Notes under the pieces: model-generated
Database searches by the model: none
Told to the model about the DNA's origin: nothing
The model's input: only the letters and a program-made list of their open reading frames with translations
Assembly (NCBI GenBank): GCA_964346665.1
Contig: CAYFVC010000067.1
Span: forward strand, 987 to 64,986
Length of the DNA: 64,000 nt
Source: an uncultured archaeon
GTDB taxonomy: Archaea > Aenigmatarchaeota > Aenigmatarchaeia > QMZP01 > QMZT01
Direction of reading: 5' to 3'
Part shown: piece by piece, positions 658 to 23,954 of the stretch
Layout of the letters: every line of letters begins with the position of its first letter
Position numbering within the stretch: position 1 is the first letter of the stretch
Translations under genes and position numbers: made by a program

Positions 658-1293
658 CTATTTCTTTTTATTTTTGGATTTCTCCTTTTTATCCTTTTCC
701 TTTTCCAAGTCCTCCGCTATCAGGGGCATGGATTTCATTATCCTGACCTGAACGCCTATTTTCCCTGGCTTCGTGTCAGCCTCATCGAATCCGTAGTCAA
801 CCAGCTCTTTCGCAGGCTGGCCGCAGTGTTTCAGATACCCATATGTGAATTTCCCTCTCCTCCCTTTCGAGCCTCCGAGCTTCCCGGAGATAATGATCTC
901 CGTTCCTATCGCCCCAGCATCCATCACCCTTTTCAACATTATGTTCCCGATCTTTTTGTAGTTGTACCCTCTTTTTAACGCTGATGTTATCTTTTTCGCA
1001 ACGATTTTTGCATCCAAGTCGGGGTTTTCGATTGATTTGACATCAACTTGAGGATTTTCGAGTTTGAATTTCTCCTTAAGACTGTCAGTCATCTCATTTA
1101 TCTTCCTTCCACCCGCGCCTATTATCCTTCCGGGTCTGTCTGTGTGTATTATGATCTTAACGCCCAAAGGCGTTCTTTCGAGCTCGATTTTCGAATAGCT
1201 TTCCTCAGGGAAATAACCCCTTATGAATTCCTCTATCTTTGTCTTCCTTATTGCGTAGTCCACGAAAAAGCTTTTTATCAACATCAAAATCAC
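658..1293 (-). CDS. rps3: 30S ribosomal protein S3 (uS3)
   Basis: It has a KH domain motif (GRIIGAGGRKINE), a uS3 C-terminal domain and a lysine-rich tail. It lies between rpl22 and rpl29. Confidence 0.9.
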   Translation of the reverse strand: MILMLIKSFFVDYAIRKTKIEEFIRGYFPEESYSKIELERTPLGVKIIIHTDRPGRIIGAGGRKINEMTDSLKEKFKLENPQVDVKSIENPDLDAKIVAKKITSALKRGYNYKKIGNIMLKRVMDAGAIGTEIIISGKLGGSKGRRGKFTYGYLKHCGQPAKELVDYGFDEADTKPGKIGVQVRIMKSMPLIAEDLEKEKDKKEKSKNKKK

Positions 1294-1673
1294 TTTTGCT
1301 GTAAAACAACCTGTATGTTCGTCATCTTCCTCCTTGTCCTCCTCATTTTCAACCTTCTGGGTCTCATGAAAGTAAAGCCCTTGTGAGCGGAAGCAAATAT
1401 CACCAACCTGCTCGTGTCCAAGCCCTTGAATTCCGCGTTCGCTTCCGCGGATTTTATAACATTCAATATTCCCTTACAAGAGTTCGTATAATACTTCCCC
1501 TCCAGGCTCCTTTTCTGATTAATCAGATCTTCCAAAAGTCTTTTGCCCTTTGTAAGATTCTTTCCGCTTATCATTCTGCAAACAACGGTTGAGCTCTTAG
1601 TGGATATTCTTAATGCTCTACCATACGCCATAGCTGACTTCTTCGGATTAAGGTTAAGCGCGTAGTTTGTCAT
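1290..1673 (-). CDS. rpl22: 50S ribosomal protein L22 (uL22)
   Basis: The 127-aa protein has the uL22 beta-hairpin region. Its position between rps19 and rps3 is conserved, and the ATGA-type overlap with rps3 suggests translational coupling. Confidence 0.85.
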   Translation of the reverse strand: MTNYALNLNPKKSAMAYGRALRISTKSSTVVCRMISGKNLTKGKRLLEDLINQKRSLEGKYYTNSCKGILNVIKSAEANAEFKGLDTSRLVIFASAHKGFTFMRPRRLKMRRTRRKMTNIQVVLQQK

Positions 1674-1677
1674 AACA

Positions 1678-2073
1678 TCACTTCAACGGGACGAATTTAG
1701 AAGACCTTGTTGCCCCGAAACCAGGGGCTGAATGCTTCACGCCCTTTCTCGTCATCACGAATTCCCCCAGCCTGTATCCGAGCATTTCAGGTTTGATCTC
1801 AAAGGAAACGTATTCCTTTCCGTTGTGAACCCCTATCTTAACTCCAACCATTTCAGGGAGTATTATCATCTCCCTACACCTTGTCCTGTGGAATTTCTTG
1901 GGGTCTTTCCTTACCTTTTCGAGCAACTTTTTCTGTCTTTCGGTCAGCCCGCGTTTCAACGCTCTCCTCTGCCTGGATTTCAAGAGAAGGCTGAATTCCT
2001 CCAAATTCATTTCCTTTACTTCTTCCAAAGATTTTCCTCGGAATGCGAATTTCGCCATATATATCACCATCAC
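1678..2073 (-). CDS. rps19: 30S ribosomal protein S19 (uS19)
   Basis: It carries the uS19 core ([13 protein letters not shown] and nearby residues). The true start is probably an internal Met (MAKFAFRG). It follows rpl2. Confidence 0.9.
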
Positions 2074-2741
2074 GTTTTCCCTTTCTTCTTCCCTGTCCTC
2101 CTAGCTCCCCATGACCCAACCTTCGCTCCAGGAGGAGCGTGTTTGCTCACGGTCATGGGCTTACCAGGTTTTGTAGGACCTCCGAATGGGTGGTCGATCG
2201 CGTTCATAGCAACGCCCGAGGTCCTGGGGTAAAGTTTCCCCTTCTTATGCATAACAATCCATTTCTTTCCCGCCTTAACAAATGGTTTCTCCCTGAACCC
2301 CTCTCCTGCAGGCATTCCCAAGCTTGCCCTGCATTCGGGATTCAAATCCTTTGTCTTCTTCGAAGGTAGTTGTATAACACATTTCCCTTTTGTTTTGGAA
2401 ACAAGTATCGCGAATGAGCCAGGGGCATTGCATAACCTCGGGCCTGAATTCGGGAATGTTTCGATTCCGAAGATTTGGGCTCCAACAGGGATTTTCGAAA
2501 GCGGTGAAACGAAATCCGCCCTGTCCCCCACTTTCAATCCTTTGGGAGCTATAAGGTAGTCTTGCGAACCATCCGAATACCTGACCCTTGCAGCAGGCGA
2601 ATTCCTTCCTGAATCGTTTATGATATCTATAACTTCACCATCCATGTTCTTGTAAGTGATTTCGATCGTTTTCCCCCTTTTCGGGACTCTGTAAGTGGGA
2701 GAACCTCTTCCTCTCCTTTGCGAAATTATCCTCTTTCCCAT
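2070..2741 (-). CDS. rpl2: 50S ribosomal protein L2 (uL2)
   Basis: uL2 motifs are present (GGGxxKPR-like region with the conserved His, [11 protein letters not shown], and a C-terminal basic tail). Confidence 0.9.
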
Positions 2742-2742
2742 A

Positions 2743-3060
2743 TTATATCATCCCCAATTTCGAAGCGATGTCAGCGGCTGAAAAATCCGGATGTATTTTT
2801 ACGAACGCCTTTTTTTGACCACGTGTCGTTATCTCCGTTCGCACCCATTCAACTTTCACTTCAAACTCCTTCTCAACAGCCCCCTTTATTTCATCCTTAT
2901 CCGCCTTTTTATCAACTATGAACACCAGTTTATTCTCGAGTTCAACCATGTTCATTGATTTTTCAGTTAAATGGGGATACACAAGGATATCCCATGCGTT
3001 TTTCCCACCTTTCACTTCTTCTTCAACGAGCTTGTCTTTACTTTCCTTTTTCTCTGCCAT
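2743..3060 (-). CDS. rpl23: 50S ribosomal protein L23 (uL23)
   Basis: The 105-aa ORF has a uL23 fold signature (VFIVDKKADKDEIKGAVEKEFEVKV). It lies between rpl4 and rpl2. Confidence 0.85.
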   Translation of the reverse strand: MAEKKESKDKLVEEEVKGGKNAWDILVYPHLTEKSMNMVELENKLVFIVDKKADKDEIKGAVEKEFEVKVEWVRTEITTRGQKKAFVKIHPDFSAADIASKLGMI

Positions 3061-3850
3061 TTAAATCCATCTCCTTTATAGCTGACTTCGTGAATATCGC
3101 GAATCTCCCCGGATGCGTTCCGGGCGCTAACAAACTCACGTCCAATTCCTTCACTAGGGAAACATCAATTCCAGGCACGTTCTCCAAAGCTCTACGAACG
3201 CCCTCGTCCTTTTCTATTACCACCAAAGGACCCCTCTTAGTTCGGTATCTCCTCCCCCTTACCTTCCCTTTACCTGACCTCACCTTCTTCTTTTCACATC
3301 TTTTCATTTCCTCTCCCAAGCCAAATTTCTCAAGTATTTTAATCACTTCTGAGGTCTTGTTGATTTTCTGGAACCCATCCTCGAGCACGATGGGGACGTG
3401 CTTCGCCTTCGAAATCCTATGACCCCTTTTCAGAACCATATCCTTGTCAAGGGTCGCAGCCAACGCGGATTTCAAGGCCTTCATTCGTTCCTTCTTGTTT
3501 ATTTTCAAAGTCCATTTCTTCCAGGACTTTGGGGGGTGCGCCTTCCTTCCTTTCACAGCTTGAGGAACAACCCTTGCGGTCAGATTGAGAAAACCATGAC
3601 CATGAATCCTTCTCATACGGGCGAGCTCCCTGTTCATCTGCGAGTCCCTTCGACTCCTTCTCCCGTGGTAATGAGCGGAGCTCCTGTGACCCGCTAAAGG
3701 ATCGCTTCCGTATACCTGCCTCAGTTTGCTGACCTCCGCAAGCACCGCCCTTTGTATGAGATCTTTTCGAACTTTTTCCATGAAAGCTTGGGGTAAGGAA
3801 ATCCTTCCCTTCTCCTTCCCGTTCAAATCGAATACAGGCAACGTATGCAT
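3038..3850 (-). CDS. rpl4: 50S ribosomal protein L4 (uL4)
   Basis: It shows uL4 (L1e-type archaeal) features. The start is probably the internal Met (MHTLPVFDLNG), so the tool ORF is trimmed at its 5' end. No rpl3 lies upstream. Confidence 0.85.
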   Translation of the reverse strand: MHTLPVFDLNGKEKGRISLPQAFMEKVRKDLIQRAVLAEVSKLRQVYGSDPLAGHRSSAHYHGRRSRRDSQMNRELARMRRIHGHGFLNLTARVVPQAVKGRKAHPPKSWKKWTLKINKKERMKALKSALAATLDKDMVLKRGHRISKAKHVPIVLEDGFQKINKTSEVIKILEKFGLGEEMKRCEKKKVRSGKGKVRGRRYRTKRGPLVVIEKDEGVRRALENVPGIDVSLVKELDVSLLAPGTHPGRFAIFTKSAIKEMDLNGREKGK

Positions 3851-3867
3851 ACACAAACCTCGCAAAT

Positions 3868-3900
3868 GACAATATTTATGTTAGGTTAATTTATAAATAT
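3868..3900 (+). promoter_or_regulatory. A/T-rich TATA-like element (aatatttatg...ttaatttataaatat) upstream of the small ORF at 3905
   Basis: It was read directly from the sequence. The consensus used is archaeal BRE/TATA-like TTTATAAA. Confidence 0.25.
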
Positions 3901-3904
3901 ATAT

Positions 3905-4132
3905 ATGGCAATCAAAAGAGACGAGGTCCACCCGGTTGAGATCAACAAAAAGCTGACCTTGATAATTTCTTTAGTATTTCTGATAGCAGTCCTTTTGCTG
4001 ATCTACCTGATCACTTACTCATTCGTTAATCTCGACCCGTTCATAACCCTCATACTGGTAATAGTTCTGATGATAGTTGTTGTGGTGGGGATATTCGCAC
4101 TGGACGTCTCAACATTCAGGGAAGTTCACTAA
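3905..4132 (+). CDS. Small membrane protein (2 predicted TM helices), hypothetical
   Basis: The 75-aa ORF is mostly hydrophobic (LTLIISLVFLIAVLLLIYLI; ILVIVLMIVVVVGIFAL). An A/T-rich TATA-like element lies just upstream. Confidence 0.35.
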   Translation: MAIKRDEVHPVEINKKLTLIISLVFLIAVLLLIYLITYSFVNLDPFITLILVIVLMIVVVVGIFALDVSTFREVH

Positions 4133-4136
4133 TTCC

Positions 4137-4862
4137 CTATTCCAACATCTCCAGAAATTCTTTCTCCATGAAATGGAGCTTTCCAGGGATTACAATCACA
4201 GCCGGGGGAGATAAATCCATCCCGATCAAATCCTCTACCTTTCCGTAAACGATCCTTTCGTGATCTGATCCGAGTTTCGAACAAAGGACAGCATGTTTCA
4301 AGATTTTATTCTTCTTTCTCCTCTCCATACCCTTCAGGATTTCGAGCGCTTCTTTCGTCCCCATTTCCCTGTCGAGAAGGAGCAAGGTGTGCAAACCTTT
4401 CGAAAGGTTTTCCTTGATTACATCGTAAAACCCTAGACTTTTGTAACCCTTTCTCGGGGTTATTATAGTCGCGGTTCTCCCGAATTTGTATATCTGTAAT
4501 CCTGTCCTAGCAATGGTAGTGTATATCGAAGAGGAATGAACGATTTCTATGGGTATGTTCGCTTTCTTTGCGTCAATAATCAAATGAATATGCGTGGTCG
4601 CCACAAGCGGATCGCCCGGGACGAGGAGAACGATATCTTTCGACCTCGCCTCCTTCAGGATTTTGTCCGATCCCTCCTCCACATCTTTCCTCTCGAGGAC
4701 TTTTACCTTCTTACTGATCAGTTTCTCCAGGTTTTTCAAATCCCCTCCCCAGTATGCCGTGTACAATTCGCAGTAAACAGAATCCGATTGCTTGCAAACT
4801 TCGATGCCGCGGAGCGAGATGTCCTTCTCGTTCCACACTCCTAGTCCGACAAGGTAGAACAT
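4137..4862 (-). CDS. dphB: Diphthine synthase (tetrapyrrole-methylase fold)
   Basis: The MFYLVGLGV N-terminus and the GDPLVATTH motif are characteristic of class III SAM methyltransferases and of DphB. The 241-aa length is typical. Confidence 0.85.
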   Translation of the reverse strand: MFYLVGLGVWNEKDISLRGIEVCKQSDSVYCELYTAYWGGDLKNLEKLISKKVKVLERKDVEEGSDKILKEARSKDIVLLVPGDPLVATTHIHLIIDAKKANIPIEIVHSSSIYTTIARTGLQIYKFGRTATIITPRKGYKSLGFYDVIKENLSKGLHTLLLLDREMGTKEALEILKGMERRKKNKILKHAVLCSKLGSDHERIVYGKVEDLIGMDLSPPAVIVIPGKLHFMEKEFLEMLE

Positions 4863-21970: not shown

Positions 21971-22755
21971 AAAACCAAATTCTGAAAAAGGGAGTGGTTC
22001 TGGTTGACAAGCCCAAAGGAATCACGAGCTTTGACGTTGTTGAAATGGTGTGTGAGACCTTAGGCATTAAAAAGGCCGGACACACAGGGACGCTCGACCC
22101 TAACGTCACGGGGTTGATGCTTCTCGCCCTCGAAGAATCCCGAAAGGCTATGCCCATCCTTATGGGGATGGACAAAGAATACGAAGGGAAAATGTTATTA
22201 CACGGAGAAGTGGAAAAGGGAAGGATAGAAAAGACATTCAAAAAATTCACCGGCGAGATCGTCCAGAAACCCCCTGTCAAATCAAGGGTCGCTCGCGTGG
22301 AGAGAAAAAGAAAGGTTTACTTTCTGGATATTCTCAGGATAAATGGAAGAGAAATCGAGTTCAGAGTTAAGTGTGAAGCAGGGACTTATGTGCGAAAACT
22401 GGTTCATGATATTGGAGAGGAACTAGGGTGTGGCGCACACATGACGGGTTTGAAAAGAACGAAGATCGGACCCTTCGAATTGAAGGAATCGGTTCCACTT
22501 TCGAAACTATCAGAAAAAAATGTAATCCCTCTCGAAAGAATTCTCGAAAGGATCAAGCTGAAAAAGATAACCGTTAAAGAGCAAGCGATACCCAAAATAA
22601 GGAACGGCTCACCTGTCTTTCCGGAGTGGATTGTAAAACGAGAGAAAGCGAAGGAAAATGAAATCGTGGGGATTTTCGACAAAGGTGGGGAGATAATAGC
22701 CCTGGGGAAACCCTTAGGCAAGAAAGTAAAAACGGACAGGGTTTTCAACTTCTGA
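21967..22755 (+). CDS. cbf5: tRNA pseudouridine synthase TruB/Cbf5 with C-terminal PUA-like domain
   Basis: It has the TruB catalytic motif (GHTGTLDP with the catalytic Asp), and its C-terminal region resembles a PUA domain. The 4-nt overlap with the LOG gene suggests coupling. Confidence 0.8.
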   Translation: MKNQILKKGVVLVDKPKGITSFDVVEMVCETLGIKKAGHTGTLDPNVTGLMLLALEESRKAMPILMGMDKEYEGKMLLHGEVEKGRIEKTFKKFTGEIVQKPPVKSRVARVERKRKVYFLDILRINGREIEFRVKCEAGTYVRKLVHDIGEELGCGAHMTGLKRTKIGPFELKESVPLSKLSEKNVIPLERILERIKLKKITVKEQAIPKIRNGSPVFPEWIVKREKAKENEIVGIFDKGGEIIALGKPLGKKVKTDRVFNF

Positions 22756-22835
22756 GAACTTAAAGATAAAAACCCGAAATCATATTGAATAATATTAACC
22801 GAAACAGAACTACGTTCTGTTTCATTCGAAATCTT

Positions 22836-22947
22836 GCCTCGGTAGCTCAGTGGTAATTTCGTAGGAAGCAGATTACATCTGCTTCGATCGCTAGGGAGCG
22901 TTCGCTTGGTAAGCGAAAGGTCGCGAGTTCAATCCTCGCCCGAGGCT
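22836..22947 (+). tRNA. tRNA-Thr(GGU) with a ~37-nt intron in the D-loop (non-canonical position)
   Basis: The acceptor stem is 7 bp (gcctcgg/ccgaggc). The D-stem is gctc/gagc. The anticodon arm ttcgc-ttGGTaa-gcgaa is uninterrupted. The T-arm is gcgag-ttcaatc-ctcgc and the discriminator is t. About 37 extra nt lie between the D-stem halves and contain a perfect 9-bp hairpin (gaagcagat-tac-atctgcttc). Confidence 0.7.
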
Positions 22948-23003
22948 TTTGCTTTTTCTCATTACACAAAAACAATTTAAATAAAACACGCGTATAAGAT
23001 AAC

Positions 23004-23096
23004 ATGCCTTGCGGAAGGAAAAGAAAGAGAAAGAAGATGAAGAAGCATAAACTAAAGAAGAGAAGGAAGAAGATGAGGCACAGGAGAAAGAAATAA
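23004..23096 (+). CDS. rpl41e: Ribosomal protein L41e (eL41)-like micro-ORF (30 aa)
   Basis: The ORF (MPCGRKRKRKKMKKHKLKKRRKKMRHRRKK) is extremely basic. Its pattern KKxMxxxLKxRRKxMRxR parallels eL41 (KKRMRRLKRKRRKMRQR). It is too short to appear in the ORF track. Confidence 0.45.
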   Translation: MPCGRKRKRKKMKKHKLKKRRKKMRHRRKK

Positions 23097-23156
23097 CAGT
23101 AATAACTACTTTTAAGGGGTTAAAATATATTTAAATACTCAAATGAAGATTTAAAC

Positions 23157-23954
23157 ATGGCATATAGACCGGATCTTATACTCCTAGTAGACTTCGATGA
23201 AGGGAAATATAGTAAAGGAAGAAAGAATCCACTCTCTGTAAACCAGATTCCTCTAATGCGTTTTCGCGGTTTGTCTTATTTAGGAAAAAATTTGATGAGT
23301 TTTGATGGTAGTCCTGAATACGATAAAAATCAAATAAGGCATGTTATTAAAGCATTTGCCAAATTCCCTGTCAAAATAAAATGTTACGGGGGATCGAAAA
23401 AATGTAGTGGAGTTGCTGAAAAAATTGTCATTCCTTGGGAAATGGTTCACAAACATGATGAACAGGTGGGACCCGAATTAAGAAAACAATTTTACGTTGA
23501 TCAAAGTCAGTTTTGCTGTATAAACTGTTACAATGATAAGAAATATAGAGAAGTTGAGAATGATAAATTAGCTGGTCTCACGGCCCTGCCGATAAGTTTC
23601 GGCATTGCTGTTGCTGGTAAAAAGAGATTTGGAACTAATTTGGATAGAACAGAACTTCACAGAAAATTGAAAAAAATAGCATACCAGTTAATCTCCCAAG
23701 ATACCGGAGAGATAATTGACCCTTATGAAATGAAAGAGCTTTCAAGAATTAGCAAAAAAGGTGCCAAGGAAATAGTTAATAAACTTCTTGGAATTCAAAG
23801 ACCTCCAAAAGAACCAGAACAGGGGGAACTTTTCGATTTGGAACGGAAAAAAGTTAAACGTAAAGAAATTGAATATAAAGAAAGACCTATATTTATATTG
23901 AAAAGAGCACCTCAAAAGAATAAAGGACAACTCATGATTGAAACTAACCTTTAA
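23157..23954 (+). CDS. Hypothetical protein (Cys-containing, AT-rich gene next to tRNA-Thr)
   Basis: The 265-aa ORF carries CYGGSKKC and CCINC cysteine clusters and lies in a region of lower GC. No recognisable family was found. Confidence 0.4.
   Translation: MAYRPDLILLVDFDEGKYSKGRKNPLSVNQIPLMRFRGLSYLGKNLMSFDGSPEYDKNQIRHVIKAFAKFPVKIKCYGGSKKCSGVAEKIVIPWEMVHKHDEQVGPELRKQFYVDQSQFCCINCYNDKKYREVENDKLAGLTALPISFGIAVAGKKRFGTNLDRTELHRKLKKIAYQLISQDTGEIIDPYEMKELSRISKKGAKEIVNKLLGIQRPPKEPEQGELFDLERKKVKRKEIEYKERPIFILKRAPQKNKGQLMIETNL

Follow-up and report, generated by a model that had tools for sequence, protein, structure and literature searches.

Archaeal tRNA introns outside the canonical site recur at certain positions, and 20/21 and 59/60 are listed among these (PMC4090602). 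For Aeropyrum pernix tRNA-Thr(UGU), Hirata et al. (2011) have shown in vivo splicing of a D-loop BHB intron, which purified EndA alone can also remove (PMC3241643). The tRNA-Glu(UUC) gene of Methanopyrus kandleri has an intron at 20b/21, and the extra loop (L3) of DPANN EndAs goes with more tRNA gene disruption (PMC5829648). Fujishima et al. (2011) reported non-canonical tRNA introns, including introns at 59/60, in the DPANN archaeon ARMAN-2 / Ca. Micrarchaeum (PMC3239211). In the Thermoproteales, there is evidence that introns have transposed among tRNAs, according to the summary of Fujishima et al. (2010) that is given in PMC4090602.

Here, we analysed a tRNA gene in a stretch of DNA of 64 kb, which is called the window below. 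Judging from the sequence, the locus is very probably a functional tRNA-Thr(GGU) gene of a Candidatus Aenigmarchaeota archaeon, with one archaeal-type intron at position 20/21 of the D-loop that is predicted to be spliced. A D-loop BHB intron is of a kind that is already well described and is ordinary for archaea; the family of this intron is found at differing sites in close relatives.

The neighbouring genes in the window encode a DHH-CID RecJ-like protein, ribosomal protein S3Ae, a LOG-family protein, Cbf5, an ArsA/Get3-like ATPase and S-adenosylhomocysteine hydrolase. The Cbf5 gene ends 80 nt upstream of the tRNA gene. The nearest Cbf5 proteins in the public collection and the genome contigs with the same synteny are named Candidatus Aenigmarchaeota. 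Look-ups of the exact protein sequences of the window Cbf5 and of P0021 gave no contig. Based on the S3Ae, Cbf5 and RecJ-like genes and on these Cbf5 relatives, the host is a Candidatus Aenigmarchaeota (DPANN) archaeon, and thus archaeal intron biology applies to it. A phmmer search found no EndA in the 64-kb window or in the fetched loci, which is a weak test as the query was an approximate Methanocaldococcus EndA sequence; no RtcB gene was identified in the 64-kb window.

Two open reading frames lie downstream of the tRNA. The first (23004-23096, + strand) has 30 codons (MPCGRKRKRKKMKKHKLKKRRKKMRHRRKK) with a TTTAAATA box ahead of it, and it is kept downstream of the tRNA in the relatives L001, L002, L003, L006, L065 and L066. 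It gave no Pfam or NCBIfam match, and we take it to resemble an eL41-type ribosomal peptide. The second (23157-23954, + strand, 265 aa) is located between this small basic ORF and the ArsA-like gene and has no Pfam or NCBIfam family. In the syntenic relatives its slot holds a gene of 214-227 aa in L002 and L065 and none in L001 and L066.

The tRNA gene at 22836-22947 (+ strand) is full length and is the sole tRNA in the 64-kb window. Its 112-nt pre-tRNA comprises a 72-nt tRNA and a 40-nt intron, and the layout is GCCTCGG-TA-GCTC-[47 nt]-GAGC-G-TTCGC-TTGGTAA-GCGAA-AGGTC-GCGAG-TTCAATC-CTCGC-CCGAGGC-T. The Rfam tRNA model RF00005 matched exactly these coordinates over its full length (model 1-71) with 60 bits, where the gathering score is 29; the E-value over the whole window is 1.8e-10. 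The model puts an insertion of 41 nt into the D-loop. The four stems consist entirely of Watson-Crick pairs, and the fold of the pre-tRNA was compared with shuffles (z = -3.84). Besides tRNA, Rfam at E <= 1 gave no credible RNA family in 22700-23100. The features of the locus, in the order of their coordinates, are as follows.

22801-22823, + strand: related 10-bp leader hairpin GAAACAGAAC-TAC-GTTCTGTTTC, perfectly paired, 12 nt upstream of the tRNA
22836-22947, + strand: pre-tRNA-Thr(GGU) gene, including the discriminator U, without encoded CCA (Rfam RF00005 and sequence)
22836-22854, + strand: exon 1, with the acceptor 5' strand, U8 and A9, the D-stem 5' strand GCUC (22845-22848) and D-loop AGUGGU (BHB cut derived by hand, after the second nucleotide of the 5' bulge; spliced product accepted by ARAGORN)
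22849-22852, + strand: 5' strand of the BHB central helix, AGUG, in the exon (A14 G15 U16 G17), pairing with 22889-22892
22853-22855, + strand: 5' bulge GUA (G18 U19 A20), 3 nt directly 3' of the central-helix strand, with predicted cleavage 22854/22855
22855-22894, + strand: intron of 40 nt at tRNA position 20/21, AAUUUCGUAG-GAAGCAGAU-UAC-AUCUGCUUC-GAUCGCUAG (predicted from BHB geometry)
22856-22858, + strand: 5' strand of the inner helix h, AUU (A21 U22 U23), pairing with GAU at 22886-22888 (G51 A52 U53); 3 bp, 100% of cells paired
22865-22885, + strand: conserved intron hairpin GAAGCAGAT-TAC-ATCTGCTTC, 9 bp, loop UAC, perfectly paired
22889-22892, + strand: 3' strand of the BHB central helix, CGCU, in the intron (C54 G55 C56 U57; alignment of 11 family members)
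22893-22895, + strand: 3' bulge AGG (A58 G59 G60), 3 nt between the central helix and the D-stem, with predicted cleavage 22894/22895
22895-22947, + strand: exon 2, with G (position 21), the D-stem 3' strand GAGC (22896-22899), anticodon arm, variable loop, T-arm, acceptor 3' strand and discriminator U (sequence and in-silico splicing)
22908-22910, + strand: anticodon GGT (Thr; reads ACC/ACU; from the sequence and ARAGORN on the spliced product)
22947-22957, + strand: T-runs (TTTT, then TTTTT) directly after the tRNA gene, also present in the orthologues; probably an archaeal oligo-T terminator

An earlier sequence-only reading of this DNA had recognized a tRNA-Thr(GGU) with canonical arms, and the full-length Rfam match at 60 bits and the perfect stems confirm it. 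The 47 nt that it saw between the D-stem halves gctc and gagc can be read directly in the window sequence, and the perfect 9-bp hairpin that it described inside them was found at 22865-22885. In shuffles of the window, 0.02 matches to the hairpin pattern are expected.

We numbered the precursor from G1 = 22836. The outer helix of the BHB is then the D-stem GCUC/GAGC (precursor 10-13 with 61-64, 4 bp), and the central helix is made of the pairs A-U, G-C, U-G and G-C, with 95.5% of cells paired over the 11 family members. The two bulges have 3 nt each and lie on opposite strands, immediately 3' of the respective strand of the 4-bp central helix, and helices of at least 2 bp flank the motif on both sides (the outer D-stem with 4 bp and the inner helix with 3 bp). 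Distally, there is a 6-nt 5' bulge, and the intron is closed by the 9-bp hairpin. In its predicted fold the insert is a strict 3-4-3 hBHBh' motif, the substrate type of the archaeal splicing endonuclease. Compensatory changes were found in the inner helix, from A-U to G-C (A21-U53) in L001 and from U-A to C-G in L055. The middle nucleotide of the 3' bulge is G or C among the orthologues; this variability fits the expectation for intron sequence.

Other structures were considered for the precursor. ViennaRNA at 37 C gave the shifted register U16-U19/G55-A58 a probability of about 0.8 versus about 0.12 for the BHB central helix, and the full BHB-cloverleaf has -40.2 versus -46.8 kcal/mol for the minimum-free-energy fold. 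We rejected this register, which is shifted by two bases, as the processing substrate because it offers no bulges of 3 nt and because 6 of 11 relatives cannot form its 16-58 pair. A K-turn or C/D-box in the flanks of the hairpin was rejected by inspection; the bases facing 'GA' are its Watson-Crick partners, and there is no tandem sheared G.A. A self-splicing group I or group II intron was rejected as well, as the insert has only 40 nt and Rfam matches only tRNA at E <= 1.

The cut sites were placed after the second base of each bulge, which gives the 40-nt intron 22855-22894. When this rule was applied to the T-loop intron of the orthologue L003, it removed exactly the 39 nt that separate L003 from the intron-less L004. 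The strict cut rule is thereby validated, because L003 minus its intron reproduces the L004 gene exactly. For the window, ARAGORN accepted the spliced product as a 72-nt tRNA-Thr(ggt) across the junction, with the caveat that G rather than A stands at position 21, and the minimum-free-energy fold of this product is the cloverleaf. The sequence-only reading had proposed a check of the gene with ARAGORN, and this check succeeded for the gene spliced in silico and failed for the native gene. In default mode, the single call in the window was a spurious truncated 67-nt gene at 22881-22947, because introns beyond the anticodon loop are not handled. That reading had also expected that removal of about 37 nt would restore a normal D-loop; the restoration was obtained (a 7-nt D-loop and a cloverleaf), but the intron defined by the structure has 40 nt.

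The base at position 21 bears on the exact cut sites. The strict cuts produce the D-loop AGUGGUG with G at position 21 (22895) in the window, L001 and L066, whereas A is found there in the Rfam consensus, the intron-less orthologues, L006 and 8 of the 11 family members. Either the mature tRNA of the clade formed by the window, L001 and L066 has G21, or the two cuts are both displaced by 1 nt in the 3' direction. In the latter case, cuts after A 22855 and after G 22895 would leave the canonical D-loop AGUGGUA as in L004. This would agree with the conservation of A21 in the Rfam consensus, and also with the window D-arm DNA, which is that of L004 with 40 nt (ATTTCG...CTAGG) inserted and zero substitutions. 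However, no BHB-like pairing exists in that register, where one of the four central pairs would form. In addition, the shifted cuts would generate G21 in the family member L042, for which the strict rule gives A21, and it is the strict rule that was validated on L003 versus L004. Spliced in this shifted way, the intron is an unlikely case.

With the strict cuts, which we prefer, processing may be pictured as follows. In the precursor, the D-stem would serve as the outer helix while AGUG of the D-loop pairs with CGCU of the intron. EndA would cut after the second base of each bulge, at 22854/22855 and 22894/22895, and an RtcB-type ligase would join the exons and probably circularise the 40-nt intron. 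RNase P would trim the 5' leader, and CCA would be added.

It may be asked whether the mature tRNA retains the insert, which would then form an additional arm in an expanded D-loop. The stable hairpin would be consistent with this, and nothing else is. The exact 3-4-3 BHB geometry and the covariation would have no purpose in such a molecule, and orthologues function without the insert. To our knowledge, there is no cytosolic tRNA with a 47-nt D-loop. We consider that an extra arm is hardly credible, and we return to the intron.

The sequence-only reading had suggested a comparison with the orthologous tRNA-Thr genes of relatives. We found that the same slot carries a D-loop intron, no intron or a T-loop intron. 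The syntenic slot is S3Ae-Cbf5-tRNA-small ORF, and the intron-less orthologues L002 (= L005) and L004 sit there. A D-loop intron only is present in L001 (a complete 846-kb genome, CP070809.1) and in L066/L067. The orthologue L006 (3331-3496) has two introns, one in the D-loop, with A at position 21, and a canonical one of roughly 50 nt at 37/38; its hairpin shows a compensatory change from A-U to G-C (GAAGCAGGU/ACCUGCUUC), and Rfam missed this tRNA gene completely. L003 (3370-3480) and L065 (about 2030-2145) have no D-loop intron and carry a T-loop intron at 59/60 instead. That of L003 is a strict BHB intron of 39 nt with a hairpin identical to that of the window, and the hairpin of L065 has one mismatch. 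ARAGORN mis-calls these T-loop-intron orthologues too. Thus, one orthologous gene exists in four states (D-loop; D-loop plus canonical; T-loop; none) among relatives with Cbf5 70-97% identical. At the more distant Cbf5 loci (L007-L009 and L068-L072), synteny is lost and there is no tRNA.

These orthologues also bear on the question of whether the gene is a decaying pseudogene, with a 40-nt insertion that is never removed and a transcript that is non-functional. ARAGORN in default mode finds no normal gene, and strict splicing leaves G rather than A at position 21, as might be expected of such a copy. However, the four stems are perfect and relaxed constraint is not seen. The exons of L001 and L066 are 100% identical to those of the window, while the intron and the flanks have diverged. 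Among the window, L001 and L066, the intron varies at 5 of 10 positions 5' of the hairpin, 3 of 3 in its loop and 3 of 9 positions 3' of it. The BHB helices have been kept by compensatory changes, and in each syntenic relative this slot contains the one Thr(GGU) gene that was seen. A pseudogene is very improbable, because a decayed copy would not keep identical exons and compensated helices.

To describe the covariation, we aligned 11 D-loop introns, four from Thr tRNAs and seven from other tRNAs. Over these introns, the BHB structure is 98.6% paired, and four pairs have double (compensatory) changes; in slid-register controls, pairing fell to 23-44% in all cases. The seven T-loop introns are 98.1% paired, with five pairs changed on both sides. 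Beyond the hairpin, the D-loop introns of Thr and Ala tRNAs share AAUUUCG-NNN-hairpin-NN-UCGCU. The L055 intron keeps CGCU despite a mismatch to its own AGGG D-loop. The intron 3' flank would pair with a universally conserved loop sequence, namely AGYG for the D-loop introns and UUCA for those in the T-loop. The strict BHB fold, the cloverleaf restored on removal, the compensatory changes and the intron-less syntenic orthologues all uphold the earlier claim that the insert is a D-loop intron. That reading had called the D-loop a non-canonical intron position, which is correct, yet 20/21 is among the listed recurrent archaeal sites (PMC4090602).

The hairpin of the intron is found in other places as well. 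Its stem is identical in the window, L001, L066 and L003 and has compensatory changes in L006, L023 and L035. In the 5' leader of the window gene, the related hairpin at 22801-22823 is set apart from the intron stem by paired changes and shares its TAC loop. This leader hairpin is kept in L002, L003, L004 and L066, and L001, L065 and L006 lack it through a clean indel.

We scanned the metagenome collection for the exact stem GAAGCAGAT-NNN-ATCTGCTTC and obtained 53 loci with 55 copies. D-loop 20/21 introns account for 8 copies, including those in tRNA-Ala GGC/UGC/CGC, tRNA-Arg CCU and the spacer tRNA-Ala of rRNA operons. T-loop 59/60 introns account for 10, among them introns of Thr CGU, Ser GCU and Ala CGC tRNAs; a single relaxed case comes in addition. 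In L045, a 38-nt strict-BHB mini-intron (2236-2273) with an identical hairpin lies within the 23S rRNA (1057-4290), and its removal restores the conserved 23S segment CCAUCCUUCAAAGAAAGCG. One copy is located elsewhere in 23S rRNA (L062), and three non-intronic copies are in the spacer from tRNA-Ala to 23S (L023, L029, L059). About 30 copies are unrelated, mostly bacterial terminator-like hairpins, which by a rough estimate is about as many as 18 fixed bases would give by chance in so large a collection. A scan of viral contigs gave one match, inside a long perfect palindrome, and it was rejected as unrelated.

Several tRNAs of the metagenome set (Ala GGC/UGC/CGC and Arg CCU, in L031, L035, L041, L060 and L061) have D-loop 20/21 and T-loop 59/60 introns together, and in such two-intron tRNAs the GAAGCAGAU hairpin is sometimes in one intron only. 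ARAGORN took the GAAGCA of the hairpin as a fake acceptor strand in these genes. The multi-intron tRNAs were classed by pattern and by eye, as automatic two-step BHB splicing was partly successful. The 23S rRNAs of the host contigs have identities as little as 75-79%. As in a transposing intron family, alike introns occur in non-orthologous Thr, Ala, Ser and Arg tRNAs, at differing sites, and in 23S rRNA, in a set that was chosen by exact stem.

These copies raise the possibility that the hairpin is first of all a small palindromic element of the DNA, or one that is otherwise autonomous, and that it inserts in or near stable-RNA genes. The D-loop copy would then survive only because its flanks chance to form, or have evolved to form, a BHB through which the cell can splice it out. 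This reading addresses where the intron came from and does not conflict with splicing. The 9-bp stem is found in D-loop introns, T-loop introns, the 23S BHB mini-intron and the non-intronic tRNA-Ala/23S spacers, and the related hairpin in the leader of the window gene behaves as a clean indel. Moreover, L003 and L004 (Cbf5 97% identical) differ by the intron despite 90 nt of identical upstream sequence and a tRNA that is the same apart from one D-loop base. However, no transposase, target-site duplication or terminal repeat is evident, and the stem changes in L006, L023 and L035 are compensatory, which points to the RNA level. The invariance of the stem in the metagenome set is also partly ascertainment, because this set was selected by exact stem. 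A palindromic element of this kind is possible, and we think it rather doubtful.

A further reading may be suggested. The window intron may belong to a family of portable mini-introns that Aenigmarchaeota-like DPANN archaea carry and that has the sequence-conserved 9-bp hairpin GAAGCAGAU/AUCUGCUUC at its core. Recent movement or exchange would have taken such introns from one universally conserved tRNA loop to the other (D-loop 20/21 and T-loop 59/60); members are also seen in other tRNAs and 23S rRNA. The hairpin would be the mobile or selected module. We put this forward tentatively, as an idea with somewhat less than an even chance. If it is true, the hairpin could be, for example, the handle of some factor or of a reverse-splicing route, and the long-standing question of archaeal BHB intron gain would become testable in one clade. 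The four intron states at one gene, together with the hairpin in other tRNAs and 23S rRNA, form a compact natural system for the gain, loss and movement of protein-spliced archaeal introns. There is also a consequence for annotation. Standard tRNA finders miss or mis-call D-loop-intron genes, as with the false 67-nt gene from ARAGORN here, and DPANN genomes therefore appear to lack tRNAs.

The closest described systems resemble this locus in different respects. Like the window gene, the Aeropyrum pernix pre-tRNA-Thr2(UGU) is a threonine tRNA with a D-loop BHB intron in which the D-arm context forms the motif (PMC3241643). However, its host is crenarchaeal, with an (alpha-beta)2 EndA that has a Crenarchaea-specific loop, its anticodon and intron sequence differ, and the conserved GAAGCAGAU hairpin is not reported for its intron. 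The Methanopyrus kandleri pre-tRNA-Glu(UUC) shares the insertion point in the D-loop just before position 21 (PMC5829648). Its intron is a relaxed HBh' and occurs alongside a canonical intron, whereas that of the window is a strict hBHBh' and the sole intron, although the orthologue L006 also has one at 37/38.

ARMAN-2 / Ca. Micrarchaeum is likewise a DPANN host with introns at non-canonical sites, and its 59/60 is the site used in the sister-lineage orthologues L003 and L065; it belongs to another phylum than the window organism, and the ARMAN-2 EndA is epsilon-2. The transposing introns of the Thermoproteales, as they are summarised in PMC4090602, are like the window family in that near-identical introns occur in different tRNA species and positions. 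The Thermoproteales are of another superphylum, and the module of the window family is a short hairpin that is found also in 23S rRNA, in spacers and in the leader.
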